From: an uncultured Acidobacteriaceae bacterium
GTDB lineage: Bacteria > Acidobacteriota > Terriglobia > Terriglobales > Acidobacteriaceae
Direction: 5' to 3'
DNA: 64,000 nt
NCBI GenBank assembly: GCA_963770365.1
Contig: CAVYPN010000009.1
Location: 30,089-94,088, forward strand
Of this stretch, positions 18,173 through 37,839 are shown in pieces. Positions within the stretch are counted from its first letter, which is position 1, and each line of letters opens with the position of its first letter. The position numbers and the translations under genes were made by a program. The notes beneath the pieces are model-generated. The model saw nothing but the letters and a program-made list of their open reading frames with translations. It searched no databases and was not told where the DNA came from.

Positions 18173-18275
18173 GCAGTTCGCAGTTCAGAGTTTGTAGTTC
18201 GCAGTTGAAAACCGGGCCGATTTGGCACGGGGGCTTCAGAAGCGTGGAGAACTAAGAACTTCGAACTGTGAACTC
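18173..18275. repeat. Inverted heptamer array, class A (fusA-tuf)
   Basis: AGTTCGC AGTTCAG AGTTTGT AGTTCGC AGTT - spacer - AACTAAG AACTTCG AACTGTG AACT. Confidence 0.9.
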
Positions 18276-18361
18276 AGATCTGGTTTTGGGGCTGGAGCCG
18301 GACAGCCGGCGCTCCTGGGAGCAACGGGCAGTAGAGCCACTGAAAGGGACTTGGATTTCTT

Positions 18362-19550
18362 ATGGCGAAGGAAAAATTTGATCGTTCGAAGCCGCATGTG
18401 AACGTGGGAACGATTGGCCACATCGATCACGGCAAGACGACGTTGACGGCGGCGATCACGAAGGTATTGCAGAAGCACAACCCGAAGAACACGTTCCGTT
18501 CGTTTGATTCGATCGACAACGCCCCGGAAGAGCGGGAGCGCGGCATCACGATCGCGACGGCGCACGTGGAGTACGAGACCAAGAACCGGCACTATGCGCA
18601 CGTGGACTGCCCCGGTCACGCCGACTACATCAAGAACATGATCACAGGCGCGGCGCAGATGGACGGCGCCATTCTGGTAGTGGCAGCGACTGACGGCCCG
18701 ATGCCGCAGACCAAGGAGCACGTTCTGCTGGCTCGCCAGGTAGGCGTGCCCTGCATCGTGGTGTTCCTGAACAAGTGCGATGCGGTCGAAGACGAAGAGC
18801 TGACGGACCTGGTTGAGATGGAAGTCCGCGAGCTGCTGTCGAAGTACCAGTTCCCGGGCGACGATGTTCCGGTCATCCGCGGTTCTGCTCTCGGAGCGCC
18901 TGAACGGGGAAGCCAAGTGGGAAGCGCAGATTGACGCGCTGATGGATGCGGTCGACCAGTACGTTCCGCAGCCGGAGCGCGCCGTGAACCTGCCCTTCCT
19001 GATGCCGATCGAAGATATCTTCTCGATCTCGGGACGCGGCACAGTAGTCACGGGAAGAATCGAACGCGGCAAGGTGAAGGTGGGCGAGGACGTCGAGATT
19101 GTCGGCTTCCGCGAGACCCGCAAGTCGGTTTGCACGGGCGTGGAAATGTTCAAGAAGCAGCTCGATGAAGGCCTGGCGGGCGATAACGCCGGCATCCTGC
19201 TGCGCGGCATTCCGAAAGAGGATGTCGAGCGCGGCATGGTTCTGGCGAAGCCGGGATCGATCACGCCTCATACCAAGTTCAAGGGCACCGTTTACGTATT
19301 GAGCAAGGAAGAAGGCGGCCGTCATACGCCGTTCTTCAAGGGCTACAGGCCGCAGTTCTACTTCCGGACTACAGATGTGACGGGAGTGGCGGAATTGCCC
19401 GAAGGCACGGAGATGGTAATGCCGGGCGACAATGTGGCACTGACGATTGAACTGATTACGCCGGTAGCCATGGAAAAGGGTCTGCGATTTGCCATCCGCG
19501 AAGGCGGACGCACGGTAGGTGCAGGCGCGATTTCGGAAATTATCAAGTAA
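18362..19550 (+). CDS. tuf: Elongation factor Tu, apparent +1 frameshift at 18899-18900
   Basis: [24 protein letters not shown] in ORF 18362-18934; the C-terminal half (LNGEAKWE...[10 protein letters not shown]) is in ORF 18813-19550. Removing one C from GCGCCTGAAC restores GSALGALNGE. Confidence 0.97.
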
Positions 19551-19552
19551 CG

Positions 19553-19655
19553 AGTGAAGAAGTGAAGCGGTGAAATAGTTAAGCAGTGAAAGAGTGAATT
19601 GGCAAGTTGCTGGCTGTTCACTTTTTCACTCGTTCACCGGTTCACTGCTTCACCG
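19553..19655. repeat. Inverted octamer array, class D (tuf-rpsJ)
   Basis: Six 8-mers AGTGAAGA AGTGAAGC GGTGAAAT AGTTAAGC AGTGAAAG AGTGAATT, then five inverse 8-mers GTTCACTT TTTCACTC GTTCACCG GTTCACTG CTTCACCG. Confidence 0.9.
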
Positions 19656-19667
19656 AAGGGAAGCCAA

Positions 19668-19985
19668 ATGGTAGGTCAGAGGATTCGAATTCGGTTGAAG
19701 GCATACGACTATCGCGTGCTGGATACCTCGACCGGCGAGATTGTGGAGACGGCCAAGCGCACCGGAGCAACGGTGGCAGGTCCGATTCCGTTGCCGACGA
19801 TCAAGAACAAGTACTGCGTGCTGCGTTCGCCGCACGTGGACAAGAAATCGCGCGAGGCGTTCGAGATTCGCACGCACAAGCGGCTGATCGACATTCTTGA
19901 GCCGACGCAACAGACGGTGGACGCGCTGATGAAGCTCGATCTGCCGGCCGGCGTTGACGTCGAGATCAAGGCGTTTGAAAAATAA
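19668..19985 (+). CDS. rpsJ: 30S ribosomal protein S10
   Basis: [25 protein letters not shown]. Confidence 0.99.
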
Positions 19986-20053
19986 GTTGCAGTTATCAGT
20001 TATCAGTCGTGCAGCAAGAAACTGAGAACTGAAAACTGAGAACTGAAGACTGG
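19985..20053. repeat. Inverted heptamer array, class C (rpsJ-rplC)
   Basis: AGTTGC AGTTATC AGTTATC AGTCGTG - AACTGAG AACTGAA AACTGAG AACTGAA GACTG. Confidence 0.85.
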
Positions 20054-20107
20054 ATTAGGTTCCGGCAGTGCGGCGCTTCAAGCCCCGCATGATGAGGTGA
20101 GGAAGAT

Positions 20108-20833
20108 ATGGCAGTCACAGGGATTCTGGGAAAAAAGATCGGCATGACGCAGGTCTTCGACGAGAAGGGCGATGTGCACCCGATTACGGTGCTGCAGGCA
20201 GGCCCTTGCGTGATTACGCAGCTGAAGACGCTGGCCAGGGATGGCTATGACGCGGCGCAGATTGGCCTCGTGGAGTTCATCAAGACGAAGAACGTCACCA
20301 AGCCGCAGGCCGGGCACTTCGCGAAGACGGAAGCGCCGCCGGTGAAGGTCATCAAGGAAGTCGACGTGGAAGCTTCTCCGGAAGGCGAAGTCGAAACCAA
20401 GGCAGGCGATCGCGTGCTGGTGGATATCTTCCAGGATGCAAAGTTTGTGGACGTGATTGGGACATCAAAAGGCCGCGGGTTTGCGGGCGTCGTTCGCCGA
20501 CACAAATTCGGCGGTGGACCCAAGTCGCACGGACATATGTTCCAAGTGCAGGGGTCTATCGGTGCATCCAGCTTTCCGTCGCGCGTGTTTCCGGGCCAGA
20601 GAATGCCCGGCCACATGGGCGCGGCGCAGATTACGGTTCGCAATCTGCGCATTCGCGGTATCGACCTGGAAGAGAACCTGCTGATGGTCGAGGGAGCGGT
20701 TCCGGGTGCGCGTGATGGGTATGTGCTGATTTCGAAGGCGAAGACGCCGCCGCGCGAGCGTCGTGGATTTGCCGGCTCGACCACGGTCGATCCGTTGAAG
20801 GCTTCGAAGAAGGCAACGGCGAAGCGTAAGTAG
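20108..20833 (+). CDS. rplC: 50S ribosomal protein L3
   Basis: GILGKKIGMTQ, DVIGTSKGRGFAG, GSIG, MPGHMG. Confidence 0.98.
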   Translation: MAVTGILGKKIGMTQVFDEKGDVHPITVLQAGPCVITQLKTLARDGYDAAQIGLVEFIKTKNVTKPQAGHFAKTEAPPVKVIKEVDVEASPEGEVETKAGDRVLVDIFQDAKFVDVIGTSKGRGFAGVVRRHKFGGGPKSHGHMFQVQGSIGASSFPSRVFPGQRMPGHMGAAQITVRNLRIRGIDLEENLLMVEGAVPGARDGYVLISKAKTPPRERRGFAGSTTVDPLKASKKATAKRK

Positions 20834-20947
20834 GCCACCTGTGGTGGGGCCAATCGCGCCTTGCGGCGCACGAGATGGAAGGCTGGCGGAAAGATGCCGG
20901 CGGAAGAGATTCAGGGCCGGGTGCAAGTCCGGCGGAAGAAGAAGACG

Positions 20948-21616
20948 ATGGCAAACGTAGATGTTGTAAATCTGAACGGCGAAAAGGTGGGCTCGCTCGA
21001 ACTGGCCGATGCAGTGTATGGCCAGGTGAACGAAGCTCTGCTTTGGGAAGCGGTGAAGCACTATCGCGCTTCGCTGCGCCAGGGCACGCACAAGACCAAG
21101 AGCCGCACTGAAGTCGCCGGTTCTGGCAAAAAGCTGTGGAAGCAGAAGGGCACAGGCCGTGCGCGTATCGGCTCAGTGCGCTCGCCGCTGTGGCGGCACG
21201 GTTATACCGTGCATGGACCCAAGCCGCGCACCTATGACTATGCGTTCCCCCGCAAAAAGCTGCAGGGGGCGTTGCGTTCGGCGCTGGCTTCAAAGCTGGC
21301 CGACGGGAAGCTGACGGTGGTCGACACGCTGGAGCTGAAAGAAGGCAAGACCAAGCTCTATCGCCAGGCGCTGGACAAGCTGGACGTGACACGCACGGCG
21401 CTGATTGTCGAAAACGGCAAGACGCTTTCGCAGGCATTGATGCTGGGTGCGCGCAATCTCAAGGGTGTTGAGCTGGTGCTGAACAACGAAGTGCATCCCT
21501 ACGATCTGCTTCGGTATGAGCGTGCGATCTTCTCGAAGGCCGCGATCGAGCAGTTGACGGATTCGCTCGTGAAGACCGTTTCAAAGCGCAGCGCTGCGCA
21601 TACGGAGGCTGCGTAA
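20948..21616 (+). CDS. rplD: 50S ribosomal protein L4
   Basis: RQGTHKTK.R.EV.GSGKK.WKQKGTGRAR. Confidence 0.98.
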   Translation: MANVDVVNLNGEKVGSLELADAVYGQVNEALLWEAVKHYRASLRQGTHKTKSRTEVAGSGKKLWKQKGTGRARIGSVRSPLWRHGYTVHGPKPRTYDYAFPRKKLQGALRSALASKLADGKLTVVDTLELKEGKTKLYRQALDKLDVTRTALIVENGKTLSQALMLGARNLKGVELVLNNEVHPYDLLRYERAIFSKAAIEQLTDSLVKTVSKRSAAHTEAA

Positions 21617-21909
21617 TGTCGAGTCTTTATACGGTGATTCGCCGGCCCTTGATTACGGAAAAGGGCTTGAGCGTAAAGGAAACCGAGGGCACGCTGGTGT
21701 TTGACGTGGCTCCGGATGCTTCGAAGACTGAGGTGAAGCAGGCGGTTGAGGCTCTCTTCAAGGTGAAGGTGGCCGCGGTGCGGACAGCGAACGTGGTGGG
21801 CAAGGAACGTCGCCGCGGAAAGTTTGCCGGCTTCAGACCGGACTGGAAGAAGGCTTACGTTCGGCTGAAGGCCGGCGAGAAGCTGCCGGAGTACGTGAGC
21901 AACCTGTAA
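21616..21909 (+). CDS. rplW: 50S ribosomal protein L23
   Basis: RPLITEK, EVKQAVE.LF.VKV, WKKAYV.L; TAATG overlap with rplD. Confidence 0.98.
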   Translation: MSSLYTVIRRPLITEKGLSVKETEGTLVFDVAPDASKTEVKQAVEALFKVKVAAVRTANVVGKERRRGKFAGFRPDWKKAYVRLKAGEKLPEYVSNL

Positions 21910-21914
21910 CGATG

Positions 21915-22003
21915 AGTTCGCAGTTCGTAGTTCAGAGTTCGCGGTTCGAAGCGAATCTGGGCTGCAACAAAACTGAGAACTACGAACTTAGAACTGTGAA
22001 CTG
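21915..22003. repeat. Inverted heptamer array, class A (rplW-rplB)
   Basis: AGTTCGC AGTTCGT AGTTCAG AGTTCGC GGTTCGA - AACTGAG AACTACG AACTTAG AACTGTG AACTG. Confidence 0.9.
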
Positions 22004-22016
22004 GTAGGAAAAAACG

Positions 22017-22841
<825 letters not shown>

Positions 22842-22856
22842 AGGAGCTGAGGGTAT

Positions 22857-23159
22857 ATGGCACGTTCGACGAAAAAGGGCCCGTTTGTGGATGCGCACCT
22901 GACAACAAAGATCGAGGTGCTCAACGTGGCCAACGATAAGAAGGTCGTGAAGACCTGGTCGCGGCGCTCGACGATCTTCCCGGAGTTTGTGGGACACACG
23001 ATCGCGGTGCACAACGGCAAAAAGTTCGTTCCGGTGTACGTGACCGAGAACATGGTGGGACACAAGCTGGGCGAGTTTGCTCCGACGCGCACGTTCAAGG
23101 GGCATACGGGCGGATCAAAGGCGGCGGAAGCTGTGGCGAAGCCGGCGGGACCGCGGTAG
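22857..23159 (+). CDS. rpsS: 30S ribosomal protein S19
   Basis: [31 protein letters not shown]. Confidence 0.99.
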
Positions 23160-23164
23160 GAAAA

Positions 23165-23200
23165 GCAGTGAGCAGTGGACAGTGAGCAGTGAGTTCACTG
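23165..23200. repeat. Heptamer array, class B, truncated right arm (rpsS-rplV)
   Basis: AGTGAGC AGTGGAC AGTGAGC AGTGAG followed by a single TTCACTG. Confidence 0.75.
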
Positions 23201-23234
23201 AATACCGCCAGCAAAGATTTTGAGGAAGAGACCA

Positions 23235-23753
23235 ATGGCAGTCGAGACAAAAGAATACCGGGCAGAAGCGAGGTTCCAGCGGGTGTCGCCGCAGAAGGCG
23301 CGGCTGGTGCTGGACCTGATCAAGGGCCGGGGAGTTCAGGAAGCGCTGGAGACGGCGCAGTTCACCAAGAAGCGCATAGCTCCGGTGATTCACAAGCTGC
23401 TGACTTCGGCCGTCGACAACGCCAAGTACGTGACAGGCGAGCAGGGGATTGATCTGGACGTCGACAACCTCTATGTGAAGTTGGCAATTGCCAACGACGG
23501 TCCGCGCATGAAGAGGATCCGGCCCGCTCCAATGGGGCGTGCGTATCGCTATCAGCGCAGGCTGACGCACATTATTTTGTCAGTCGCCGAGCGCGATGGC
23601 GGGCACTCGCACCTGGTGACCAAGGCTGACGAGCCGGAGACCGCTGCGAAGTCGACCAAGAAGGCAGGGGCGAAAAAGACAGCCCCGAGGACGGCAAAGA
23701 AATCAGCGGCGAAGAAGCCGGTTGCTGCAGCGAAGAAGAAGGCCAAGAAGTAG
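23235..23753 (+). CDS. rplV: 50S ribosomal protein L22 with Lys/Ala-rich C-terminal tail
   Basis: SPQKARLV.DLIKG, RIRPAPMGRA, THI; tail AAKSTKKAGAKK...KKKAKK. Confidence 0.98.
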   Translation: MAVETKEYRAEARFQRVSPQKARLVLDLIKGRGVQEALETAQFTKKRIAPVIHKLLTSAVDNAKYVTGEQGIDLDVDNLYVKLAIANDGPRMKRIRPAPMGRAYRYQRRLTHIILSVAERDGGHSHLVTKADEPETAAKSTKKAGAKKTAPRTAKKSAAKKPVAAAKKKAKK

Positions 23754-23890
23754 GCCGAGGATATTTTCAGGGTCGGTGCAAGCCGAAGCCTGGACAGTAA
23801 AGTCGACGCAGCCATCAGGGAGCGGCGATTCGAAAAAGGAACAAGGGCGCTGCAACCCTGGAAATGCAGTAGAGGTTTGAGGAAAAAAGT

Positions 23891-24559
23891 ATGGGACAGA
23901 AAGTCCACCCTTATGGATTCCGGCTGGGAGTGAACAAGCCGTGGCGTTCGCGCTGGTTCTCTGAGCGCGACTATGACAAGCTCCTGGTTGAAGACGTGAA
24001 GCTCAAGGCTGAGCTGCGCGAAAAGCTCAAGGCTGCCGGCGTGAGCTCGGTGGAAATCGAGCGTCCGGGCAACAAGCTGCGCTTCCTGATTCGCACCGCG
24101 CGTCCGGGTATCGTCATCGGCCGCAAGGGCGCGGAGATCGAGAAGCTCAAGACCGAGCTCGGCAAGCGCACCAACCGCGAAGTGTTCATCGACATCATCG
24201 AGGTGAACAAGCCGGAGCTGGATGCACAGCTGGTGTCGGAGAACATCGCGCTGCAGCTTGAAAAGCGCGTGAGCTTCCGCCGCGCGATGCGCAAGAGCGT
24301 GGATTCGGCGCTGCGTTTCGGCTGCAAGGGAATCAAGGTGCGTGTCTCGGGCCGTTTGAACGGCAACGAAATCGCGAGGTCGGAGTGGTATCTGCAGGGG
24401 CGGTTGCCGCTGCATACGCTGCGCGCGGATATCGACTACGGGTTTACCGAGGCGCATACCACCTACGGCGTAATCGGCGTCAAGACGTGGATCTATCGCG
24501 GCGACATTTATGAGCAGAAGCGCCGTCAGCCCGCGCCGGCAGGTTCGGGAGTGTTTTAA
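23891..24559 (+). CDS. rpsC: 30S ribosomal protein S3
   Basis: [33 protein letters not shown]. Confidence 0.99.
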
Positions 24560-24561
24560 CG

Positions 24562-24653
24562 GCAGTTCATTGTTCACAGTTCTTAGTTCGCAGTTGCGAT
24601 TAGCGCTGTTGAGCGGCAAGGACTGAGAACTACGAACTTAGAACTTTGAACTG
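24562..24653. repeat. Inverted heptamer array, class A (rpsC-rplP)
   Basis: AGTTCAT TGTTCAC AGTTCTT AGTTCGC AGTTG - GACTGAG AACTACG AACTTAG AACTTTG AACTG. Confidence 0.9.
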
Positions 24654-24671
24654 AGTTTTGAGGATTTCGCT

Positions 24672-25118
24672 ATGTTGATGCCGAAGAAGGTTAAGTTCAG
24701 GAAGCAACAGAAGGGCAAGCGCCGTGGTAAAGCGTGGCGCGGTTCCTCTCTGTCTTTCGGTGAGTACGGTTTGAAGGTCCTGGAGTGCGGCTACATCACT
24801 GACCGGCAGATCGAAGCCAGCCGTATTGCCATGACCCGCTTCATCAAGCGCGGCGGCAAGATCTGGCTGCGGCTGTTTCCGGACAAGCCGATCACCAAGA
24901 AGCCGGCCGAAGTTCGAATGGGTTCGGGCAAGGGCGCACTGGATCACTGGGTAGCCGTGGTTCGTCCCGGCAAGATCCTGTTCGAGATGGAAGGCGTGAC
25001 GCCGGAGATCGCGCAGGAAGCCATGCGCCTGGCTTCGAACAAACTGCCGCTGAAGACGAAATTCGTGCAGCGTCCGGGCGCCGAGAAGACAGCAGCGGTT
25101 GAAAAGAAGTCGGCCTAG
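24672..25118 (+). CDS. rplP: 50S ribosomal protein L16
   Basis: [24 protein letters not shown]. Confidence 0.99.
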
Positions 25119-25172
25119 GGAAAGACGCGCCGCAGATTCCCGCGGGAATGGGCAGAGCGCCGGAGAGAAGAG

Positions 25173-25586
25173 ATGGAACTCACAAAGATTCGTAGTTTGA
25201 GCGACGACGAGCTGCTGCACCAGGAGAAGACCTCCGCCGAGCAGTTGTTCCGGCTTCGCTTTCAGGTCTCGATGGGGCAGAACGACGGAGTGAAGAAGCT
25301 CCGCCAGTTGCGCAAGGAGATCGCACAGATCAAGACGGTTTCGCGCGAGCGCGAACTGGGCGTTCGTGGAGCGCAGCACGAGCTGGTCTCGACCTTGCCC
25401 GCGAGCGAAGAGAAGAAAAGCGCCGCCAAGAAGACCGTGAAGAAGACGGTGAAGAAGGCAGCGAAGCCGGCGAAAGGCAAGTCTGGCGCAAAGAAGAGCG
25501 TGAAGAAGGGCCCAAGGTCGACCGCCAAGAAGAGTGCGAAAAAGAGTGCAGCGGCCAGCGCAACGAAGAAGGGAGCCGGTAAATGA
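25173..25586 (+). CDS. rpmC: 50S ribosomal protein L29 with long Lys/Ala-rich C-terminal extension
   Basis: [19 protein letters not shown] core followed by [11 protein letters not shown]... (137 aa total). Confidence 0.95.
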
Positions 25587-25915
25587 CGGTAGCAACTGAG
25601 AAGCAGGCGCCGGCGTCCCGGCGTAACGAGAAGGTGGGCAACGTGGTTTCGACCAAGATGCAGAAGACCATCGTGGTCGAGGTCGAGATGCGCAAGGCCC
25701 ATCCAAAGTACAAGCGCATTGTGAAGAGCTCGAAAAAGTTCTATGCGCACGATGAGCAGAACTCAGCGCGCCTCGGCGATGTGGTCCGCATTCGCGAGAC
25801 CAGGCCGCTGAGCAAGCTGAAGCGGTGGTCACTCGAAGAGATTGTCCGGCGTTCGTCGCTGGCGCAGATTGAAGACACGGCTGGAACAGCCGCTGAAGTA
25901 GAAGCCGCCAAGTAG
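25583..25915 (+). CDS. rpsQ: 30S ribosomal protein S17
   Basis: [30 protein letters not shown]. Confidence 0.98.
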
Positions 25916-25941
25916 GCGGAGCGGTTTAAGGAGAAGAATCC

Positions 25942-26313
25942 ATGGCTGTGCAAATGAGAACCATGCTCGCGGTGGCCGACAACTCCGGCGCGCGCAAGCT
26001 GCAGGTGATTCTGCCGCTCGGCGGCGGCCTCGGCAAGATCGCCGGTCTCGGCGATGTAGTGACTGCCGCGGTGAAGGAAGCTTCGCCGGATGGCACGGTG
26101 AAGAAGGGCAAAGTGGTGAAGGCGGTGATTGTCCGCACCCGCAAGGAGCACCGTCGCCGTGACGGAACGTATATCCGCTTCGACGAGAACGCGGCAGTGG
26201 TGATCGACGATGCGCACGAGCCCGTAGGGACGCGCGTATTCGGGCCAGTCGCTCGCGAACTGCGTGAGAAGAAGTTTTTGAAGATTGTGTCACTGGCACC
26301 GGAAGTGGTGTAA
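25942..26313 (+). CDS. rplN: 50S ribosomal protein L14
   Basis: [31 protein letters not shown]. Confidence 0.99.
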
Positions 26314-26315
26314 CG

Positions 26316-26398
26316 AGTGACGAGTTCAAAGTTCATAGTTCGCAGTTCACGGTAACTGCACAAAGAACTCAGAACTTCGAACTTAGAACAAAGAACTG
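26316..26398. repeat. Inverted heptamer array, class A (rplN-rplX)
   Basis: AGTGACG AGTTCAA AGTTCAT AGTTCGC AGTTCAC - AACTCAG AACTTCG AACTTAG AACAAAG AACTG. Confidence 0.9.
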
Positions 26399-26412
26399 TT
26401 TCGGAGAAACAA

Positions 26413-26739: not shown

Positions 26740-26743
26740 TGAA

Positions 26744-27445: not shown

Positions 27446-27448
27446 GAA

Positions 27449-29173: not shown

Positions 29174-29521
29174 ATGATCAAGAGAAATGAAATTCGCCAG
29201 CGGATCCACTCCCGCATTCGCGCGAAGCTGGCAGGCACAGGTGAGCGGCCTCGGCTGAACGTGTACCGTTCGCTGAACCACATCTACGCGCAAGTGATTG
29301 ACGACCAGAAGGGTGTGACCATTGTGTCCGCCTCAACGCTGGCGACAAAATCGAAGACCGGTGGCAACGTGGCCGCTGCCAAGGAAATCGGCAAAACGAT
29401 CGCCGAGAAGGCGCAGGAAAAGGGCGTCAAGAAGGTGGTATTTGATCGCGGCGGCTTCCTGTATCACGGGCGCATCAAGGCCCTTGCCGAGGCAGCGCGC
29501 GAAGCAGGGCTTGAGTTCTAA
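29174..29521 (+). CDS. rplR: 50S ribosomal protein L18
   Basis: [33 protein letters not shown]. Confidence 0.99.
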
Positions 29522-29523
29522 AA

Positions 29524-29630
29524 GCAGTGAACAGTGAAACAGTGGTCAGTTTCATTTGCGGTGACGCTGAAATCTCTGGCAAGACGAACGGGACAAGCTG
29601 AACACTGTTCACTGAACACTGTTCACTGAA
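29524..29630. repeat. Inverted heptamer array, class B (rplR-rpsE)
   Basis: AGTGAAC AGTGAAAC AGTGGTC AGTTTCA - CACTGTT CACTGAA CACTGTT CACTGAA. Confidence 0.85.
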
Positions 29631-29642
29631 AAAGAGAGAGCA

Positions 29643-30152
29643 ATGATGATCTTGAATAAGAAACTCGATGCCAACCAATACAACCTGAAGGATCAGGTGG
29701 TTTCCATTAACCGCGTGACCAAGGTGGTGAAGGGCGGCAAGAACATGTCGTTTGCCGCGCTGGTAGTGGTAGGCGATGCCGCCTCGGGTGTGGTGGGTTA
29801 CGGATCGGGCAAGGCGAAGGAAGTTCCCCAGGCCATTCGCAAAGGAATTGAAGCGGCCAAGAAAAACCTGGTTCGCATCAACCTGACCGATACGACGATT
29901 CCGCACCAGGTGCTGGGCCGCTACGGTTCGGGCCACGTGTTGCTGAAGCCGGCTCCAGAAGGAACGGGTGTGATTGCCGGCGGTGCGGTTCGCGCGGTGA
30001 TGACCTCAGTAGGCGTGCAGAACGTGCTGACCAAGAGCCTGGGAACGGCGAACCCGCACAACGTGATCAAGGCGACGTTCGATGCCTTGGTCCAGCTGCG
30101 TGACAGAGCCGATGTCGCAACAGCCCGCGGCAAGCAGGTTGAGGAGCTTTAA
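29643..30152 (+). CDS. rpsE: 30S ribosomal protein S5
   Basis: [38 protein letters not shown]. Confidence 0.99.
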
Positions 30153-30154
30153 TC

Positions 30155-30343
30155 ATGGCTGAAACCAAGAAGATTCGTATTGAATACTACCGCTCCAAGA
30201 ACTCCACCCCCGCCAAGCACAAAGCGGTTGTGAAGGGCCTTGGCTTTACGCGGCTCAACCAGGTCGTTGAGCGCGTGGACAACGAGTCAGTGCGTGGCAT
30301 GGTGAAGAAGGTGCCGCACCTTGTGCGAATTCTGGAAAACTAG
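30155..30343 (+). CDS. rpmD: 50S ribosomal protein L30
   Basis: 62 aa in canonical position; GLG..RLNQ.V...DN.SVRGMV.KV.HLV. Confidence 0.95.
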   Translation: MAETKKIRIEYYRSKNSTPAKHKAVVKGLGFTRLNQVVERVDNESVRGMVKKVPHLVRILEN

Positions 30344-30359
30344 TTTTCCAGAATTCGCA
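30324..30359. repeat. Perfect 36-bp palindrome centred on the rpmD stop codon
   Basis: TGCGAATTCTGGAAAACT|AGTTTTCCAGAATTCGCA; checked base by base. Confidence 0.95.
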
Positions 30360-30441
30360 GTTCACAGTTCTTAGTTCACAGTTCAGCACGTTCGCAGGAA
30401 CCTCGAACAACTGCGAACTTAGAACTACGAACTCAGAACTG
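30352..30441. repeat. Inverted heptamer array, class A (rpmD-rplO)
   Basis: AATTCGC AGTTCAC AGTTCTT AGTTCAC AGTTCAG - AACTGCG AACTTAG AACTACG AACTCAG AACTG. Confidence 0.9.
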
Positions 30442-30497
30442 AACGTAACGCGAGTCGATGGGGATCAACCTCACCGGCGCTATTAGCGAGGAAAATC

Positions 30498-30959
30498 ATG
30501 GCAAAGAATCTTTCAAATCTGCGCGCGCCCAAGAAGGCAAACACCGGGCGCAAGCGCGTGGGCCGGGGCATGGGATCCGGCATGGGCAAAACCTCAGCTC
30601 GCGGCCACAAGGGCCAGGGTTCCCGTTCGGGCTTCAGCCTGATGCGCGGCTTTGAGGGCGGCCAGATGCCGCTGCACCGCCGGCTTCCGAAGCGCGGCTT
30701 CACTAACATCTTCCGCACCGAGTACAGCGTGGTGAATCTTGACAGGTTTGCCGAGCTCTCGGTCAAGGAAGTCGGTTTGGACGATTACAAGAAACTGGGC
30801 CTGGTTTCGAGCAAGAAGGCGCTGATCAAAGTGCTTGGCTCGGGCGAGCTGACCACGGCGATTACCATCCACGCGCACAAGTTTTCCAAGTCGGCGGTCG
30901 AGAAGATCGAAAAGGCCGGCGGCAAGGCCGTTGTGGCGGGAGCGCCGGCGGCAGCGTAG
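30498..30959 (+). CDS. rplO: 50S ribosomal protein L15
   Basis: KRVGRG.GSGMGKTS.RGHKGQ.SR, FEGGQMPL.RRLPKRGF. Confidence 0.99.
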   Translation: MAKNLSNLRAPKKANTGRKRVGRGMGSGMGKTSARGHKGQGSRSGFSLMRGFEGGQMPLHRRLPKRGFTNIFRTEYSVVNLDRFAELSVKEVGLDDYKKLGLVSSKKALIKVLGSGELTTAITIHAHKFSKSAVEKIEKAGGKAVVAGAPAAA

Positions 30960-31076
30960 GACACCCATCCCCCGGGTTAAGAATCGAGATCCGGGGCACC
31001 CAATGTGTCCGCGAACACCGCCAAGCTGGTTTCCCGGCTGCCAAGATCGATAGCTGAAGGCATCCGGCGGAATTCG

Positions 31077-31106
31077 GGGACATGGGGCGACCTTCGCGCT
31101 TACACT
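31077..31106 (+). promoter_or_regulatory. Possible internal promoter upstream of secY
   Basis: GGGACA, 18 nt, TACACT (31101-06) in the ~200-nt rplO-secY spacer. Confidence 0.3.
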
Positions 31107-31157
31107 GGATTTTGGCAAGATCTGAGCGGCGTCATCGCCTGAAGCGGAAAACCAAAC

Positions 31158-32543
31158 ATGCTTGAAAAGTTTCTGAATATCTTCCGGATTCCTGACCTGC
31201 GCAAGCGGGTTCTGTTCACACTGGGCATTCTCGCCGTGTACCGCCTGGGTGCGTTTATTCCGACACCCGGCGTGAACACGACCCAGCTTGCGCTGATGTT
31301 CAACTCACAAAGCGGATCAGCGCTTGGTCTGATGGACCTGTTCGGCGGCGGCAACCTGCGCCGTATGACCATCTTTGCGCTGGGCATCATGCCCTATATC
31401 ACCGCGTCCATCATCTTCCAGTTGCTGACCGTGGTCTATGAGCCGCTGGCGCGCATCCAGAAAGAAGGCGAACTGGGCCGGCGGAAGATCACGCAATGGA
31501 CGCGCTACGTGACGGTGGTTTTGGGTGCGCTGCAGTCCATTGGTATCGCGGCCATTCTTACCAGGCAAGGCCTTGTGCTGAACCCTGGTATCGGCTTCAG
31601 CCTGATGACGGTGCTCACGTTGACCACCGGCACTGCGTTCATCATGTGGCTCGGCGAGCAGATTACGGATCGCGGCATCGGCAACGGCATGAGTTTGCTG
31701 ATCTTCGCAGGAATCATTGCAGGCCTGCCCCGCGGTGTTGCCGAACTGGTGACCAAGGTACAGACCAGCGCCTGGGGATCGCTTACCATCTTCGCTGTTC
31801 TGATTATGGTCGTGGGCATGATCGCGGTCGTTGCGTTCATTGTCTTTGTGGAGCGCTCGGAGCGCCGCATTCCCATCCAGAGCGCCCGGCGCATTGTCGG
31901 CCGCCGCATGATGGGCGGCTCATCCAGCCACTTGCCCCTGAAGGTGAACTCCGGCGGCGTCATGCCGGTCATCTTCGCCAGCTCGATTCTCTCGGCGCCG
32001 CTGCTGTTCGGGCAGATGGAGTGGGTGCAGAACAACCGCTTCTTCCAGCCGATCATCCAGGCGCTGGCCCCGGGCTATCCCTGGTATGAACTGCTGTACA
32101 TGCTGGGCATCATCTTCTTTGCCTACTTCTACGTATCGATCGTGATGAAGCCGGACGATATCGCCGACAACTTCCGCAAATCCGGATCGTTTATTCCCGG
32201 CATCCGGCCCGGCAAGCGCACTTCAGACTTCATCAACGACATTCTTACCCGCATCACGCTGGTAGGCGCGCTCTATCTCATCATCATTTCCCTGGTGCCC
32301 ACCTTCCTCATTTCGGGCATTCGCTTTGACAAGATTTGGCTGATCGGTAGGTTCTTTGAGAGTTTGCCTACCTGGGCTACGCACGGTTTGGGGGTCAATT
32401 TCTACTTTGGCGGCACCTCGCTGCTGATCGTAGTGGGTGTCGCTATGGACACTGTCAACCAGATCGAATCGCAGCTGATCATGCGCCACTATGACGGCTT
32501 TTCCCCGCGTTCCGGTCGTATACGCGGAAGGAAAAACTGGTAA
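31158..32543 (+). CDS. secY: Preprotein translocase subunit SecY
   Basis: IFALGIMPYITASII.QLL, WLGEQIT.RGIGNG.S, FIPGIRPG..T, GGTSLLI.VGV. Confidence 0.99.
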   Translation: MLEKFLNIFRIPDLRKRVLFTLGILAVYRLGAFIPTPGVNTTQLALMFNSQSGSALGLMDLFGGGNLRRMTIFALGIMPYITASIIFQLLTVVYEPLARIQKEGELGRRKITQWTRYVTVVLGALQSIGIAAILTRQGLVLNPGIGFSLMTVLTLTTGTAFIMWLGEQITDRGIGNGMSLLIFAGIIAGLPRGVAELVTKVQTSAWGSLTIFAVLIMVVGMIAVVAFIVFVERSERRIPIQSARRIVGRRMMGGSSSHLPLKVNSGGVMPVIFASSILSAPLLFGQMEWVQNNRFFQPIIQALAPGYPWYELLYMLGIIFFAYFYVSIVMKPDDIADNFRKSGSFIPGIRPGKRTSDFINDILTRITLVGALYLIIISLVPTFLISGIRFDKIWLIGRFFESLPTWATHGLGVNFYFGGTSLLIVVGVAMDTVNQIESQLIMRHYDGFSPRSGRIRGRKNW

Positions 32544-33322
32544 TGTTGTCGTCTGCAGCAAGTGTTGAAAGTGCAAGAGAAGCAATAGAAGGAGATCGAG
32601 GGTCGGCAAGAATGATCGTACCCGGACCGATTCTCCTGTTGGGTGCACCGGGCGTGGGAAAGGGTACCCAGGCCAAGGAACTGGTGCAACATTGGGGGAT
32701 ACCCCAGATTTCGACCGGAGACCTGCTCCGCGCCAATGTGGCGCAGGGCACGCCTCTCGGCAAAACGGCCAAGGAGATCATGCACCGGGGAGAACTGGTT
32801 CCGGACTCCCTTGTAAATGAGATGGTGGCCGTGAGACTTCAGCAACCGGATACGGTCAAAGGCTACATTCTGGACGGGTTCCCGCGGACTTTGGCGCAGG
32901 CTCACTGGCTGGATGGACGTCTGGCGGTGGGGGCCGGCGACAGGTCTTCGTCGCAGGGGTCACTGGCGACACAAACAGAGGCTTTGCCGCTTATTGCCGT
33001 CAGTATCCAAGTGGATTATAATCAGTTATTGCGCCGGATTACGGGGCGCAGGAACTGCCCGGTCTGCCAGACCATCTACAACATCTATACAAAGCCGCCC
33101 CAAAGGGCTGGTTTTTGTGATGTTGAAGGGGCTGCACTGATCCAGCGAGCCGATGACACGGAGAAGGCTTTTGCGGAGCGCATGCGCAGCTACGCTGCCC
33201 AAACCGCGCCTGTGATTGAGCACTATCGGGAGCTGGGGCGATTTGTAGAAGTGCCTGGAGATGGGCCGATCGCCGCAATTGCGGCTGGAATTGTGGCTTC
33301 CGTTGAGCGGCTGCGCCAATAG
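32543..33322 (+). CDS. adk: Adenylate kinase
   Basis: GAPGVGKGTQA, ISTGDLLR, LDGFPRT, Cys-containing LID, RADD. Start may be 32612. Confidence 0.97.
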   Translation: MLSSAASVESAREAIEGDRGSARMIVPGPILLLGAPGVGKGTQAKELVQHWGIPQISTGDLLRANVAQGTPLGKTAKEIMHRGELVPDSLVNEMVAVRLQQPDTVKGYILDGFPRTLAQAHWLDGRLAVGAGDRSSSQGSLATQTEALPLIAVSIQVDYNQLLRRITGRRNCPVCQTIYNIYTKPPQRAGFCDVEGAALIQRADDTEKAFAERMRSYAAQTAPVIEHYRELGRFVEVPGDGPIAAIAAGIVASVERLRQ

Positions 33323-33376
33323 CGCGGTGCGCGAACGGGGTTTTGTGCGTGTAGTGGAGTCGAAAGGGCATACGAA

Positions 33377-34129
33377 GTGGCGGTCGTACTGAAGTCGTCT
33401 CTGGAGATCGAAAAGATGCGCCGCGCGGGCAAGGTTGTCCGCGAGGTCCTGGAGTTGGTGCGCAGCCACGTGAAACCTGGCGCAACGACTCTCGATCTCG
33501 AGAAGGTGGCAGAATCGCGGATCAACGAGCTCGGCGCCAAGCCGGCCTTCAAGGGTTATCACGGGTTTCCGTGCGTGCTCTGCACCTCGATCAACAATGA
33601 AGTGGTGCACGGCATTCCTTCGAAGAAGCGAGTCCTCAGAGAAGGGGACATTGTTTCGGTTGACTGCGGTGCAATTGTCGATGGCTACTACGGGGATGCC
33701 GCGATCACGGTGCCGGTGGGCGAGAAGATTGCGCCCGATACGGCGAGGCTGCTCGAGGTAACGGAGAAGTCGTTGCATGCGGGCATCTCGGCGGTGAAGC
33801 CGGGAGCGACACTGGGCGATATCGGCAATGCGGTGCAGAAGGTGGTCGAGGCCGAGGGCTTCTCGGTGGTACGGGATTTTGTCGGCCACGGAATTGGCAG
33901 CCACATGCACGAAGATCCGCAGGTGCCGAACTTCGGCGAAGCGGGTTCAGGCATGCGGTTGCGCGCAGGAATGGTGATCGCCATTGAGCCCATGGTGAAT
34001 GCCGGCAAGCCGGATGTGCGCGTGTTGCGCGATGGCTGGACGGCAGTGACAGGCGATGGAAGCATGAGTGCTCATTTTGAGCACACGGTGGCGGTTACCG
34101 ACACCGGGGCGAAGGTTCTGACTGAGTAA
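33377..34129 (+). CDS. map: Methionine aminopeptidase type I
   Basis: [44 protein letters not shown]. Confidence 0.99.
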
Positions 34130-34209
34130 AACTCAGTCCAAAACTTGAGAGTGCGGAAGCACTCCAAAACACAAGGGCGCGCAAGCGCGCACCCAGAAGT
34201 GGATACAGT

Positions 34210-34428
34210 TTGTCGAAGGAAGACGCGATTGAGGTCATGGCAACGGTCACAGAGACGTTGCCCAACGCCATGTTCAAGGTGAAGCTCGAGACGAATCACG
34301 AAGTGCTGGCCCATGTCTCGGGAAGAATGCGCAAGAACTTCATCCGTATCTTACCGGGTGACCGCGTAGCCGTAGAACTGAGTCCGTACGACCTGAACCG
34401 CGGGCGAATTGTGTACCGCTACAAGTGA
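34210..34428 (+). CDS. infA: Translation initiation factor IF-1
   Basis: TTG start; [35 protein letters not shown]. Confidence 0.99.
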
Positions 34429-34508
34429 GTTAGCAGTTCATAGTTCTAAGTTCATAGTCTGTCTGCGTTCGGTATCAGCGAAAACTACGAACTCAGAACT
34501 ACGAACTT
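34428..34508. repeat. Inverted heptamer array, class A (infA-rpmJ)
   Basis: AGTTAGC AGTTCAT AGTTCTA AGTTCAT AGTCT - AACTACG AACTCAG AACTACG AACTT. Confidence 0.88.
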
Positions 34509-34554
34509 ATTCAAACCGCGTTGTTCGTAGATGCGCGGAGAAGGGCAGTAATCA

Positions 34555-34668
34555 ATGAAGGTCCGTGCATCGGTAAAGAAGATTTGCGTGAAATGCAAGG
34601 TCATCAACCGCCGTGGGGTGGTTCGGGTGATCTGCGAAAACGCAAAGCACAAGCAGCGCCAGGGCTAG
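34555..34668 (+). CDS. rpmJ: 50S ribosomal protein L36 (too short for the ORF track)
   Basis: Translated by hand: [37 protein letters not shown], 37 aa. Confidence 0.98.
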
Positions 34669-34700
34669 TTAGTCTGGCAAGAAGGCGGAAACTCCACACG

Positions 34701-34790
34701 AGTTCTAAGTTTGGAGTTCGTAGTTCACAGTTGGATCGCGCAATAGCAAAAGTTGTAACTGTGAACTTAGAACTTTGAACTGCGAACTCC
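34701..34790. repeat. Inverted heptamer array, class A (rpmJ-rpsM)
   Basis: AGTTCTA AGTTTGG AGTTCGT AGTTCAC AGTTG - AACTGTG AACTTAG AACTTTG AACTGCG AACTCC. Confidence 0.9.
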
Positions 34791-34906
34791 GCAAGGGGCT
34801 AGTTAGCTTGAGTCAAGGCTTGCGATGAACCCCGGAGTAACCCGCATTAACCCGTGCGAGCCGGTTAAGGCCGGAGGCACAAAACAGAAGTAGCAAAGGA
34901 TTCAGA

Positions 34907-35293
34907 ATGGCACGTATTGCTGGCGTCGATCTGCCCCGCAACAAGCAGGCTCGGATCGCGCTCACATACATCTACGGCATCGGCAATCCCCGATCGCTGA
35001 AGATCCTGGAGAAGGCGCATGTTGACGCCAACAAAAAGGTCCAGGACCTCAGCGAAGAAGAGGTAAACCACATCCGCCAGGTGATTGAGGACGAGGGTGA
35101 CGTCGAGGGCGATCTCCGCAAAGACACCCAGATGCACATCAAGCGCCTCATCGATATTCAGAGCTACCGCGGCAACCGGCATCGCCGGTCGTTGCCGGTA
35201 CGTGGACAACGCACCCACACCAATGCACGCACCCGCAAGGGACCGCGTAAGGGCACAGTGGCGGGCAAGAAGAAAGCGACGGCGAAGACCTAA
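34907..35293 (+). CDS. rpsM: 30S ribosomal protein S13
   Basis: [35 protein letters not shown]. Confidence 0.99.
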
Positions 35294-35715
35294 TGGCGAA
35301 ACCAGAGCAGAAGGCCGCAGCCGGCAAAGCTGGCAAGAACAAGAAATTCAAGAAGCGCGAGCGCAAGAATGTGCCGTTCGGCATTTGCCACATTCAGGCG
35401 TCGTTCAACAACACCATCGTGACCATCACCGACCAGGTGGGCAACACGCTCAGCTGGAAGAGCTCGGGTTCGCTCGGCTTCCGCGGTTCGCGCAAGGGCA
35501 CGCCGTTCGCGGCGCAGCAGGCTGCGTCCAATGCGGCGTCCATGGCGCGCGATCACGGTCTACGGGCAGTCGACGTACGCGTTGCCGGTCCCGGATCGGG
35601 CCGCGAGTCGGCCATCCGTGCGCTCGCAGCAGCGGGCATCGACGTTCGCTCAATCCGCGACGTTACGCCGGTGCCGCACAATGGTTGCCGTCCGCCGAAG
35701 CGGCGTCGCGTGTAA
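35293..35715 (+). CDS. rpsK: 30S ribosomal protein S11
   Basis: [46 protein letters not shown]. Confidence 0.99.
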
Positions 35716-35717
35716 AA

Positions 35718-35796
35718 GCAGTTCAGAGTTTGTAGTTCTTAGTTCAAAGTTTGCGGGCTTCGTACCCAAACTAAGAACTACGAACTTAGAACTCAA
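35718..35796. repeat. Inverted heptamer array, class A (rpsK-rpsD)
   Basis: AGTTCAG AGTTTGT AGTTCTT AGTTCAA AGTTTG - AACTAAG AACTACG AACTTAG AACTCAA. Confidence 0.9.
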
Positions 35797-35870
35797 AACA
35801 TAAACATGGGCCGGGACGACCTGCGCACCGTCGCACGTAAACCGGCCGACATCCGAAGTCAGGAGAAGAA

Positions 35871-36500
35871 ATGGCTCGTTATACCGGAGCAGTCTGCCGC
35901 CTTTGCCGTCGCGAAGGCACCAAGCTCTTCTTGAAGGGCACCAAATGTTTATCGGACCGTTGCCCGATTGAGAAGCGCAACTTTCCTCCCGGACAACACG
36001 GCAAGGACCGCAAGGCCAAGATTGTGGGCTACGGCCTGCAGCTGCACGAAAAGCAGAAGGCCAAGCGTATGTACTTCACGCTCGAAGGCCAGTTCCGCGA
36101 GTACTACGAGAAGGCCAACCGCGCCCAGGGCGTCACCGGCGAATTGCTGATTCAGCAGCTCGAGCGGCGCCTGGATAACGTGGCTTTCCGTCTCGGCTTT
36201 GCCATTTCGCGCCGCCAGGCACGCCAGGTTGTTCGCCACGGCCACGTTTCCGTCAACGGCCGCAAGGTGAACATTCCTTCGTTCCAGGTGAACGTGGGCG
36301 ACGAGATCGCGATTCGCGAGTCTGCGAAGAAGCTGATCATCATCGAGCAGGGCACACAGTACGCCGCGCAAAACCCGGTGCCGGTGTGGCTCGAAGCGAA
36401 TTTTGAAAACATGTCTGGGCGCATTCTCAGCCTGCCCAAACGTAAGGACGTCAACCTCCCGATCAACGAACAGCTGATCGTCGAGTTGTACTCGAAGTAA
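35871..36500 (+). CDS. rpsD: 30S ribosomal protein S4 (zinc-binding form)
   Basis: [22 protein letters not shown]....[23 protein letters not shown]. Confidence 0.99.
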
Positions 36501-36502
36501 AA

Positions 36503-36595
36503 GCAGTTCACAGTTCAAAGTTCGCAGTTGTGGGCCGGTGGCGCGATTCGGCAACCGGCCATAACTAAGAACTATGAACTGCGAACTAAGAACTT
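36503..36595. repeat. Inverted heptamer array, class A (rpsD-rpoA)
   Basis: AGTTCAC AGTTCAA AGTTCGC AGTTGTG - inner stem GGCCGGT/ACCGGCC - AACTAAG AACTATG AACTGCG AACTAAG AACTT. Confidence 0.9.
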
Positions 36596-36671
36596 AACGC
36601 AAAGGAGAACTTGCGCGGCCGCCGCAAAATGCATCGCGACGTACCTGCCGCGCGGGAAAAGAGATAACGAT

Positions 36672-37766
36672 ATGCTTTGGAGAGGATTCCAAAAACCGAA
36701 GCGCCTGGCAGTTGATGCCGAGTCGCTCAGCGAAACATTTGGCAAGTTCAGCGCCCAGCCCTTTGAGCGCGGATTTGGCACAACCATCGGCAATGCCCTG
36801 CGCCGCACGCTGCTCAGCTCGATCGAGGGCGCCGCGGTCACAGCGGTTCGCATCGAAGGCGTGTTGCACGAGTTCCAATCGATCGCCGGCGTTGTGGAAG
36901 ATGCGACCGACATCATCCTGAATCTCAAACAGATTCCCTTCAAGCTTTCGGGCGATGGTCCCAAAGCGCTCTACCTGCGCGCTGACCAGCCCGGTGTGGT
37001 CACCAGCGGCATGATCGAAGCCGACGGTGAAGTGGAGATTCTGGATAAGAACGTGTACATCGCCACCGTCTCTGAAGGCGGCCGGCTTGAGATGGAAATG
37101 CGCCTGAAGCGTGGCCGCGGATACATTTCGGCCGACAAGAACTTCGACGCCGATCTCGGCCTGGGCTTCATCCCGGTGGATTCGGTCCACTCGCCCGTGC
37201 GCCGCGTGAACTACGTGGTCGAAGCCGCCCGTCTGGGTCAGATCACCGACTACGACAAGCTCACCCTCGAAGTGTGGACGAACGGCGCGGTTCTTCCCGC
37301 CGATGCTGTGGGTCTGGCAGCGAAGCTGCTGAAAGACCACATGAATATCTTCATCAACTTCGAAGAAGAAATCGAAGCTGAGTCGCGCGGTGAAGAAGGC
37401 CGCGTGATGCTGCGCAACGACAACCTGAACCGCTCAGTCGAAGAGCTGGAACTGTCGGTCCGCAGCTACAACTGCCTGAAGAACGCAAACATTCAGACCA
37501 TCGGCGAGCTGGTGCAGAAGACCGAAGCCGAGATGCTGAAGACCAAGAACTTTGGCCGCAAGAGTCTGAACGAGATCAAGGAAATTCTCGCGCAGATGGG
37601 CCTCTCGCTGGGTATGAAGATCGACGAGAGCGGCAATGCCGTTCCCGGGCCGACCAGCATTCCGCCGGCGACAGCACTGGCTGCCAACTACAGCCACTAC
37701 GACGATGAGGACGAGCCGCTGGATTCAGTCGATCTCCAGCTGCCTACCGAGACCGAGAACTTCTAG
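36672..37766 (+). CDS. rpoA: DNA-directed RNA polymerase subunit alpha
   Basis: [53 protein letters not shown]; ATG 36672 after GGAAAAGAG. Confidence 0.99.
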
Positions 37767-37839
37767 AGTTCTCAGTTGTCAGTCGTCAGTTCTCAGTCGC
37801 ATCTGGGAACTGACAACTGAAATCTGACAACTGACGACT
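37767..37839. repeat. Inverted heptamer array, class C (rpoA-rplQ)
   Basis: AGTTCTC AGTTGTC AGTCGTC AGTTCTC AGTCGC - AACTGAC AACTGAA ATCTGAC AACTGAC GACT. Confidence 0.9.

Follow-up and report, generated by a model that had tools for sequence, protein, structure and literature searches.

The DNA analysed here, a stretch of 64,000 nt from an uncultured Acidobacteriaceae bacterium (contig CAVYPN010000009.1; hereafter, the window), contains 19 inverted arrays of short tandem repeats in the spacers of its ribosomal super-operon. These elements are probably gene-less copies of a widespread and replaceable hairpin cassette, with arms of the short tandemly repeated repetitive (STRR) type, that is looped out of the mRNA. 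In the cassette, the 5' arm is G-rich and made of tandem N-A-G-N-N-N-N units, the 3' arm is its reverse complement, and the space between them is occupied either by a short unique loop or by a promoterless gene of the TIGR02436/PF05635 four-helix-bundle (4HB) family. The same family, bracketed by heptamers and inverted repeats, is also carried by 23S rRNA intervening sequences. The slot of the cassette lies directly behind a stop codon within an operon; the cassette is transcribed as part of the operon mRNA and is replaced wholesale by other heptamer families over short evolutionary times. The elements of the window and the 4HB cassettes form one architectural family, and the view of the former as a new RNA device restricted to this operon is too narrow.

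The window has a G+C content of 59% and holds rpsL, rpsG, fusA, tuf and the S10, spc and alpha operons on the plus strand (15009-38342). The 35 genes from rpsL to rplQ, separated by 34 junctions, were assigned by their N-termini, and these assignments match Pfam calls for 18 of the 35 genes in contigs encoding identical proteins. A gene-by-gene recheck gave the same count as the initial annotation, an element at 19 of the 34 junctions. Chains of at least three AGT at 7-nt spacing occur 17 times in the window, every one inside 18175-37797, when 0.18 would be expected from mononucleotide shuffles; the 15 mirror chains of ACT all fall inside 18251-36594, so that the remaining ~44 kb is free of both, as had been stated. 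In addition, a motif-free scan for period-7 self-similarity returned 26 arrays in the window, 25 of them within 18168-37862, a segment in which periods 5, 6, 9 and 10 showed no enrichment. By our own arithmetic, 19 elements placed at random over 64 kb would all fall in one 19.7-kb stretch with a chance of about 2e-10. The same elements are present in independent metagenomes and are therefore no assembly artefact. Rfam gave no match at gathering score over the whole window on both strands, a tRNA scan of the window found none, and no promoter signal coincides with the elements, the promoter and terminator scan being at shuffle level.

Three classes of element can be distinguished by their units. 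Class A (13 of the 19) has four to five AGTTCNN units, a unique loop of 2-37 nt and four to six NNGAACT units, and classes B (AGTGAAN) and C (CAGTYNT) account for three elements each. The arms are arrays of tandem units, 28-48 nt long, with a balanced 4-6 units on either side. The distance from the stop codon to the left arm is 0-10 nt in 18 of the 19 elements, and the right arm ends 7-116 nt upstream of the next start codon (no more than 17 nt away in seven junctions). Two generalisations made at first are valid for most elements only: units are of 7 nt except at tuf|rpsJ, where the period is 8 (AGTGAANN), and there are two inverted arms except at rplX|rplE, where only the left one is present. 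The rpsH|rplF spacer, as a further correction, holds a second, decayed array besides its intact element. The order of the units is common to different copies (AGTTCAG-AGTTTGT-AGTTC in left arms, ACGAACT-TAGAACT in right arms), and the copies of the window are therefore related by descent. The individual features are as follows:

18175 to 18274, plus strand: fusA|tuf element, class A, with five AGTTCNN units, a 37-nt loop and four NNGAACT units.
19553 to 19656, plus strand: tuf|rpsJ element, class B with an 8-nt period, with six AGTGAANN units, a loop and five TTCACNNN units.
19990 to 20052, plus strand: rpsJ|rplC element, class C, three CAGTNNN units followed by five NNNACTG units.
21915 to 22002, plus strand: rplW|rplB element, class A, 5+5 units.
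23166 to 23200, plus strand: truncated copy at rpsS|rplV, class B, four CAGTGNN units and a single TTCACTG unit.
24564 to 24652, plus strand: rpsC|rplP element, class A, 5+5 units; an RNA contig runs across 24482-24826.
26316 to 26397, plus strand: rplN|rplX element, class A, 5+6 units with a 5-nt loop.
26745 to 26780, plus strand: half element at rplX|rplE, class C, left arm only, five CAGTNNT units.
27450 to 27538, plus strand: rplE|rpsZ element, class A, 4+5 units; the next Shine-Dalgarno sequence and ATG are at most 9 nt downstream, and related genomes have other alleles.
27743 to 27814, plus strand: rpsZ|rpsH element, class A, 5+5 units with a 2-nt loop, inside RNA contig 27711-27892.
28296 to 28382, plus strand: rpsH|rplF element, class A, 5+5 units, with a class-B element in its place in the 98%-identical L001; spanned by RNA contig 28244-28430.
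28431 to 28458, plus strand: decayed second array of the rpsH|rplF spacer, NNNACTG units without a clear partner arm.
29037 to 29118, plus strand: rplF|rplR element, class A, 5+5 units, the first of which overlaps the stop codon.
29525 to 29628, plus strand: rplR|rpsE element, class B, CAGTGAA-type arms and a 50-nt loop.
30352 to 30440, plus strand: rpmD|rplO element, class A, 5+5 units.
34428 to 34507, plus strand: infA|rpmJ element, class A, 5+4 units; the site is empty in OY969908.1 (L336).
34701 to 34788, plus strand: rpmJ|rpsM element, class A, 5+5 units; its slot has a conserved block of the spacer on either side.
35720 to 35800, plus strand: rpsK|rpsD element, class A, 5+5 units; L007 has a CAGTGGT-type element here instead.
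36505 to 36594, plus strand: rpsD|rpoA element, class A, 4+5 units, identical across nine strains.
37767 to 37839, plus strand: rpoA|rplQ element, class C, directly behind the stop codon and followed by T6; in L147 this junction holds a full 4HB cassette.

The possibility that the elements are a local by-product, that is, unrelated and functionless arrays generated in place by slippage and fold-back, is extremely improbable. Some homogeneous arrays in other genomes, such as (CAGTTCT)9, do look like slippage expansions, and heptamer copy number differs among Coxiella strains. In the window, however, adjacent class-A units are non-identical, as had been noticed at the outset, the junctions share their unit order and the arms are balanced; moreover, this architecture is found again, with unchanged polarity, in different phyla and around a single gene family, and alleles are swapped whole between strains.

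Folding with RNAfold gave -20 to -52 kcal/mol for 17 of the 19 elements. The variable positions of class-A units (n = 122) comprise 29 Watson-Crick pairs, 12 G-U pairs, 23 A-C oppositions and 58 mismatches, which is pairing at chance level; the stems consequently consist of 5-bp AGUUC/GAACU helices broken every 7 nt, in line with the short interrupted helices first described. A sense-strand preference for G-U was looked for in these positions and not found (12 G-U versus 23 A-C), and sense folding is no better than antisense (-643.7 versus -621.2 kcal/mol in total). In orthologous class-A copies the arms are unchanged while the loops are free in sequence and length. The covariation of paired positions that had been proposed as a check was almost absent: the RNAalifold covariation term on orthologous copies is about zero, a value that is uninformative because the arms are invariant.

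In the favoured reading, the arms would zip in the RNA into an interrupted stem of 5-bp helices and 2-nt mismatches, from which the insert would be looped out. Such a stem would bring the upstream stop codon back beside the downstream ribosome-binding site, and this restored proximity would explain how inserts of ~100 nt are tolerated in a tightly coupled operon. A looped-out insert would be nearly harmless, by the same logic as the tolerance of intervening sequences in rRNA. The stem may also block 3' exonucleases or be cleaved in part by RNase III. The high density of elements in the ribosomal operon might result from this tolerance together with a bias of new cassettes towards landing beside existing ones in heavily transcribed DNA, and would not be an operon-specific regulatory invention.

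Transcription of the elements was followed in three soil metatranscriptomes and one DNA run, all of them as assembled contigs, so that depth means contig depth. Depth in the RNA runs is 17-190 over the operon and ~0 over the neighbouring 20 kb, whereas the DNA run has a depth of ~7 over both; RNA depth being limited to the operon and DNA depth being even, the signal is RNA. The RNA contigs run from coding sequence through the whole element into the next gene at the depth of the flanks. For example, depth is 21.9 for the contig at 27711-27892 and 26.9 for that at 28244-28430, as compared with 18-32 beside them. Since RNA contigs extend across whole elements, these are part of the mRNA, without visible removal. 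It is also very unlikely that the elements are intrinsic terminators or attenuators dividing the super-operon into transcription units. A T-run does follow the right arm at rpoA|rplQ and the array ending at 28458, but the contigs read through, most right arms have no U-run, and the terminator-like sites in 18100-38000 number 22, against 22.0 in shuffles, with none on an element.

Comparison of close relatives has revealed a rapid turnover of the elements. Ten metagenome contigs encode an RpoA identical to that of the window and are ~98% identical to it in DNA. Their junction elements show roughly 12 differences over 1531 nt (against 1.85% overall), with two exceptions: contig L001 has a class-B element of 8-nt period at rpsH|rplF, and contig L007 one of CAGTGGT type, with a long loop, at rpsK|rpsD. 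Up to the element ends the sequence is otherwise unchanged in both replacements, and the boundaries are sharp. Contigs from other samples carry further alleles behind the rplE and rpsZ stop codons. Contigs that skip an element were considered as empty sites, an interpretation that was rejected: at least the skip at 28289-28401 holds 104 other letters and is a replacement allele. Four flanking junctions were then compared in contigs with identical RpsZ or RpmJ proteins, two complete genomes among them, and an element was present in 38 of the 40 cases, drawn from at least four heptamer families in each junction set, with the remaining spacer conserved. One site is empty (infA|rpmJ of L336, OY969908.1); a chimera was found at rplE|rpsZ of L324 (601-700), in which a left arm of (CAGGGAT)5 faces a GAACT-type right arm with which it is unable to pair; and one spacer of L342 has two elements. 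The elements, like miniature inverted-repeat transposable elements (MITEs), occur as many dispersed, related and strain-polymorphic copies. In the loci examined no transposase lies between such ends, the sole gene found there being the 4HB gene, and none was seen among the neighbours. Of the three options offered by the initial annotation, the third, empty copies of a mobile element, is the one favoured by the 4HB link and by the strain swaps at the same junction, although no mover was found.

Other features of these spacers were recorded as well. In L342 (about 400-700 and 815-1151), tandem repeat units of ~50 nt lie upstream of rpmJ, where the heptamer element would be expected, and its rpmJ|rpsM spacer has a second heptamer hairpin within an otherwise conserved block. 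In the window, the parts of the rpmJ|rpsM and rpsZ|rpsH spacers that lie 3' of the elements (34790-34906 and 27817-27893) are conserved in ten genomes each (e.g., GGGGCTAGTTAGCTTGAGTCAAGGCTTGCGATGAACCCC); leader or autoregulatory structures of the alpha and spc operons may lie here, and Rfam gave no match. Contigs of several runs join, within 18100-38000, the left arm of one junction to the right arm of another with a different loop; these joints could be assembly-graph jumps via shared units, or further alleles.

Alternatively, the elements could be an RNA device selected by the host, in which hairpins protect the 3' ends of cistrons, provide sites for RNase III or RNase E, or tune coupling, so that any hairpin suffices. 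This is a real possibility, if clearly not the leading one. It accounts for slots that stay filled (38/40) despite the turnover of families, for arms more conserved than the rest of the sequence in 98%-identical strains, for hairpin bases lying at most 10 nt from the stop and, in seven junctions, at most 17 nt from the next start, and for elements that are transcribed and retained; in fact, transcript stability and translational coupling have been proposed for the repeats between hupS and hupL of cyanobacteria (PMC2670836). On the other hand, 15 junctions of the same operon have no element, the empty allele (L336) and the element with non-complementary arms (L324) exist, and the same elements occur in ordinary operons of other genomes. 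Neither the G-U counts, nor the sense and antisense energies, nor covariation favour such a device. Nor does a purely structural role explain why AG is invariant and why the period and the polarity of the arms are fixed. These three features point to a conserved recognising factor or to templated synthesis of the arrays, and the 4HB protein is the only candidate in sight.

The distribution of the arrays is far broader than the ribosomal operon. A scan for (AGTTCNN)3AGTTC in one genome per species returned at least 120 loci in Acidobacteriota, Planctomycetota, Bacteroidota, Verrucomicrobiota, Cyanobacteriota, Nitrospirota, Chloroflexota, candidate-phyla bacteria and others, most of them in Acidobacteriota and other non-cyanobacterial phyla. 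Contrary to the confinement to ribosomal operons claimed initially, the S10/spc/alpha operons hold 6 of 120 loci among the matches listed, and others lie in groES|groEL, iscS|iscU, ftsY|ribD and similar pairs, mostly of same-strand genes. The order of the arms (AGTTC array, then GAACT array) prevails over the reverse by about 32 to 5, and arrays reach up to 18 units. Inverted heptamer arrays also stud the ribosomal operons of L062 (Acidobacteriaceae), L051 (a low-G+C acidobacterium) and L046 (Levyibacteriota), with units such as TAGGGTT, TAGCGTC, TAGATTT, AAGTTCA and CAGTGGC. The heptamer sequence therefore varies by locus; what is constant is the period of 7, the AG of the 5' arm with the CT of the 3' arm, and the complementarity of the arms.

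A side observation concerns ribosomal junctions of L046, L338 and L051, where several families have a stop codon in every unit (TAGGGTT, GTAGCCG, TAGATTT). The stop of the upstream gene is itself the first unit in these families, and the 7-nt period puts the stops of such units in all three reading frames. Viral contigs also contain (AGTTCNN)4, at 112 loci (L211-L322), far above chance; none of these loci has a 4HB gene and just 6 have paired arms, and a phage vector for the cassette is accordingly not evident.

The initial annotation had mentioned similar arrays next to TIGR02436-like genes in other genomes, and this was borne out by five genome loci and by metagenomes. In 5 of 120 loci among the matches listed (L021, L058, L089, L108 and L128) a small open reading frame (ORF) lies exactly between both arrays and matches TIGR02436 with E values of 1e-37 to 1e-39. 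In the acidobacterial genome of L128, the units of the cassette are those of the window, the left arm begins 5 nt past the upstream stop, and the right arm adjoins the downstream ATG. Another acidobacterial locus, L147, has a full 4HB cassette filling the rpoA|rplQ junction. A metagenome search with an alignment of the array-bracketed 4HB proteins found 568 relatives, of which 80 loci were kept and 70 had enough flank. Period-7 arrays were present upstream in 43 of these 70, downstream in 49, and on both sides in 38. The units vary (CAGTGGT, CAGGGAT, TAGGGAC, AAGTGGG, CAGATGA and more), the upstream arm being G-rich and the downstream arm C-rich. The arms are complementary in 81% of cases within a locus and in 6.7% across loci, with 0 of 10000 permutations reaching the observed value. 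Of the upstream arrays, 48 of 55 keep AG, and of the downstream ones, 49 of 58 keep CT, as against 26 for the next commonest dinucleotide, and the similarity of the heptamers declines with declining identity of the 4HB proteins.

The sites of the 4HB cassettes are intra-operon junctions: atpH|atpA, atpA|atpG, pheS|pheT, a pair of MacB-type permease genes, and rpoA|rplQ. The MacB-type junction has arms of CAGTTCN, CAGATGA or CAGGGGT, depending on the genome. The upstream neighbour is on the same strand as the 4HB gene in 47 of 59 loci, and the common flanks are atpA, pheS and permease genes, not rRNA. In four related genomes (L167, L170, L184 and L190) the 4HB genes at pheS|pheT are conserved without detectable heptamer arrays. 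Rfam at gathering threshold on 13 related loci gave a single match, to RNase P RNA; this bacterial RNase P RNA (L136, 1071-1633) spans 563 nt against a model of 367 positions, implying long insertions, and no heptamer arrays were seen in it.

If the 4HB protein is the recognising factor, the arrays may be a multimeric protein-binding site in which the N-A-G units would dock an oligomeric protein, most plausibly an Avd-like 4HB protein acting in trans, and binding of the 5' arm would compete with the hairpin. The model resembles the binding of the trp RNA-binding attenuation protein (TRAP) to (G/U)AG repeats, and bAvd, a related protein, is pentameric and binds nucleic acid. The closest solved homologues, 2GSC and 2RLD, have five chains each, and the arms of the window have 4-5 units. 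AG is also the sole sequence feature common to unrelated heptamer families (48/55 arrays), and heptamer type co-diverges with the 4HB protein. This model nevertheless appears doubtful: arrays elsewhere reach 18 units, the cores of class A keep five bases and not two, the window is without a 4HB gene, and the pheS|pheT 4HB genes stand without detectable arrays. A bolder proposal, which we regard as unlikely, is that the arrays and the Avd-like 4HB gene constitute a mobile element of a new class. The sole protein of this element, a pentamer, would recognise N-A-G repeats, and the element would move via an RNA or single-stranded DNA hairpin into stop-proximal sites of heavily transcribed DNA (rRNA, ribosomal-protein, ATP-synthase and chaperonin operons). 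Gene-less copies would be mobilised in trans, and the 23S intervening sequences and cyanobacterial STRRs would be special cases.

Several points weigh against the replaceable cassette as the explanation of the window's elements. A jackhmmer search found no TIGR02436/PF05635 ORF in the window, in agreement with what had been noted from the sequence, and ribosomal operons account for just 1 of the 80 4HB loci, so that any parent copy of these elements would be putative. The cassette was seen without any accompanying recombinase, transposase or reverse transcriptase, and moving DNA is, to our knowledge, not a known activity of 4HB proteins. The only hint of a target-site duplication is ambiguous, as one family at infA|rpmJ is surrounded by TGA...TGA while other families and the window copy are not. 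Replacement could also occur by homologous recombination between lineages; the 38/40 occupancy fits selection for a hairpin as well as targeted insertion; and either cassettes lost their ORF or hairpins captured one. RNA depth shows no depletion over the elements, which argues against efficient excision as far as depth of assembled contigs, a crude measure, can show it. Finally, stems mismatched every 7 nt are poor substrates for RNase III.

Other genes of the operon have peculiarities of their own. The tuf gene (18362-19550) is split into two overlapping frames, and one base at 18898 is absent from all four runs (three RNA, one DNA), so that the window has a 1-nt insertion, either an assembly error or a strain-specific pseudogene. 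The products of rplV (23235-23753), rpmC (25173-25586) and rplQ (37863-38342) have long tails at the C-terminus, rich in Lys and Ala or Glu, and L29 (rpmC), with 137 aa, is about double its usual length.

If the cassette reading is true, it gives an identity to unannotated intergenic repeats in at least ten phyla, and unites cyanobacterial STRRs, 23S rRNA intervening sequences and the large, functionless TIGR02436/PF05635 (Avd-like) family. Should the cassette move by a mechanism of its own, that mechanism would be new. The most conserved operon, the source of phylogenomic markers, would hold strain-variable slots, which break metagenome assemblies through chimeric joints and could serve as fine-scale strain markers. 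The reading also calls for caution with guilt by association. PF05635 genes have been found inside cas operons, for instance between cmr3 and cmr2, and the reading of 4HB genes as linked to clustered regularly interspaced short palindromic repeats (CRISPR) rests on that location (PMC3936711). A cassette that lands in any operon junction would explain it equally well.

Among known systems, repetitive extragenic palindromic (REP) sequences and bacterial interspersed mosaic elements (BIMEs) are extragenic palindromes at gene 3' ends in operons, where they can stabilise the upstream mRNA; a REP near a stop codon can interfere with translation termination. A REP is a single imperfect palindrome of 20-40 nt with a conserved head and a tyrosine-HUH transposase, the REP-associated tyrosine transposase (RAYT), whereas the arms in the window are built of tandem units. 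Identity with REP/BIME was rejected: these arms are arrays of 28-48 nt, and no RAYT-like ORF was noted in the loci examined. Correia elements, or Neisseria miniature insertion sequences (NEMIS), and the enterobacterial repetitive intergenic consensus (ERIC) are closer in habit. These MITE-like repeats of ~100 nt with inverted ends lie between co-transcribed genes, fold in mRNA, are strain-variable and influence processing by RNase III or RNase E. Their terminal repeats, however, are of unique sequence with a defined target duplication, in contrast to the short-unit arrays of the window, which have family-specific sequence and no known transposase partner.

The intervening sequences of 23S rRNA (Coxiella, Leptospira) share more. 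They consist of a promoterless 4HB ORF between terminal inverted repeats with tandem heptamers 5' of it, lie inside a highly transcribed RNA from which the terminal stem loops them out, and their sporadic distribution suggests horizontal spread (PMC4990558). In Coxiella, three tandem GACAGAT units precede the S23p (PF05635) ORF, and their number differs by strain (PMC4990558). Shifted in register, GACAGAT becomes CAGATGA, the same unit as in L136 and one in keeping with the AG rule. The elements of the window likewise have terminal inverted repeats and tandem heptamers 5', but they lie in mRNA spacers and not in rRNA helices, have no ORF, and appear from the RNA contigs to be retained rather than efficiently excised; the Coxiella stem, moreover, is a nearly perfect helix of 28 bp, unlike stems interrupted every 7 nt. 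That they are themselves insertions in 23S rRNA was rejected, as the window has no rRNA match in Rfam and all of them lie between protein-coding genes.

The closest parallel is with the STRRs. Both of their structural marks, tandem repeats of 7-nt period and inverted, hairpin-able arrays between co-transcribed genes, are found in the window. The canonical cyanobacterial units are CCCCAGT, TTGGTCA and CAACAGT. Two of these three classic units, CCCCAGT and CAACAGT, contain the CAGT found in the window. The canonical units themselves and a cyanobacterial host are lacking, since the units here are AGTTCNN, AGTGAAN and CAGTYNT. In the literature searched, no description was found of the general architecture, the AG rule, the non-cyanobacterial spread or the gene-less copies in ribosomal operons, nor of allelic replacement or a 4HB-gene link of STRR-type repeats, the exceptions being the Coxiella heptamers and the hupS-hupL hairpins. 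The latter do remove the novelty initially claimed for inverted heptamer hairpins between co-transcribed genes: in filamentous cyanobacteria (Nostoc/Anabaena), hairpin-forming 7-bp STRR repeats lie between hupS and hupL, with transcript stability and translational coupling suggested as their roles (PMC2670836). The cyanobacterial STRRs and the elements of the window are alike in their tandem 7-nt units, their folding into hairpins and their position between co-transcribed genes, and differ in that the latter belong to another phylum, have other units, and occur as nineteen copies within one operon.

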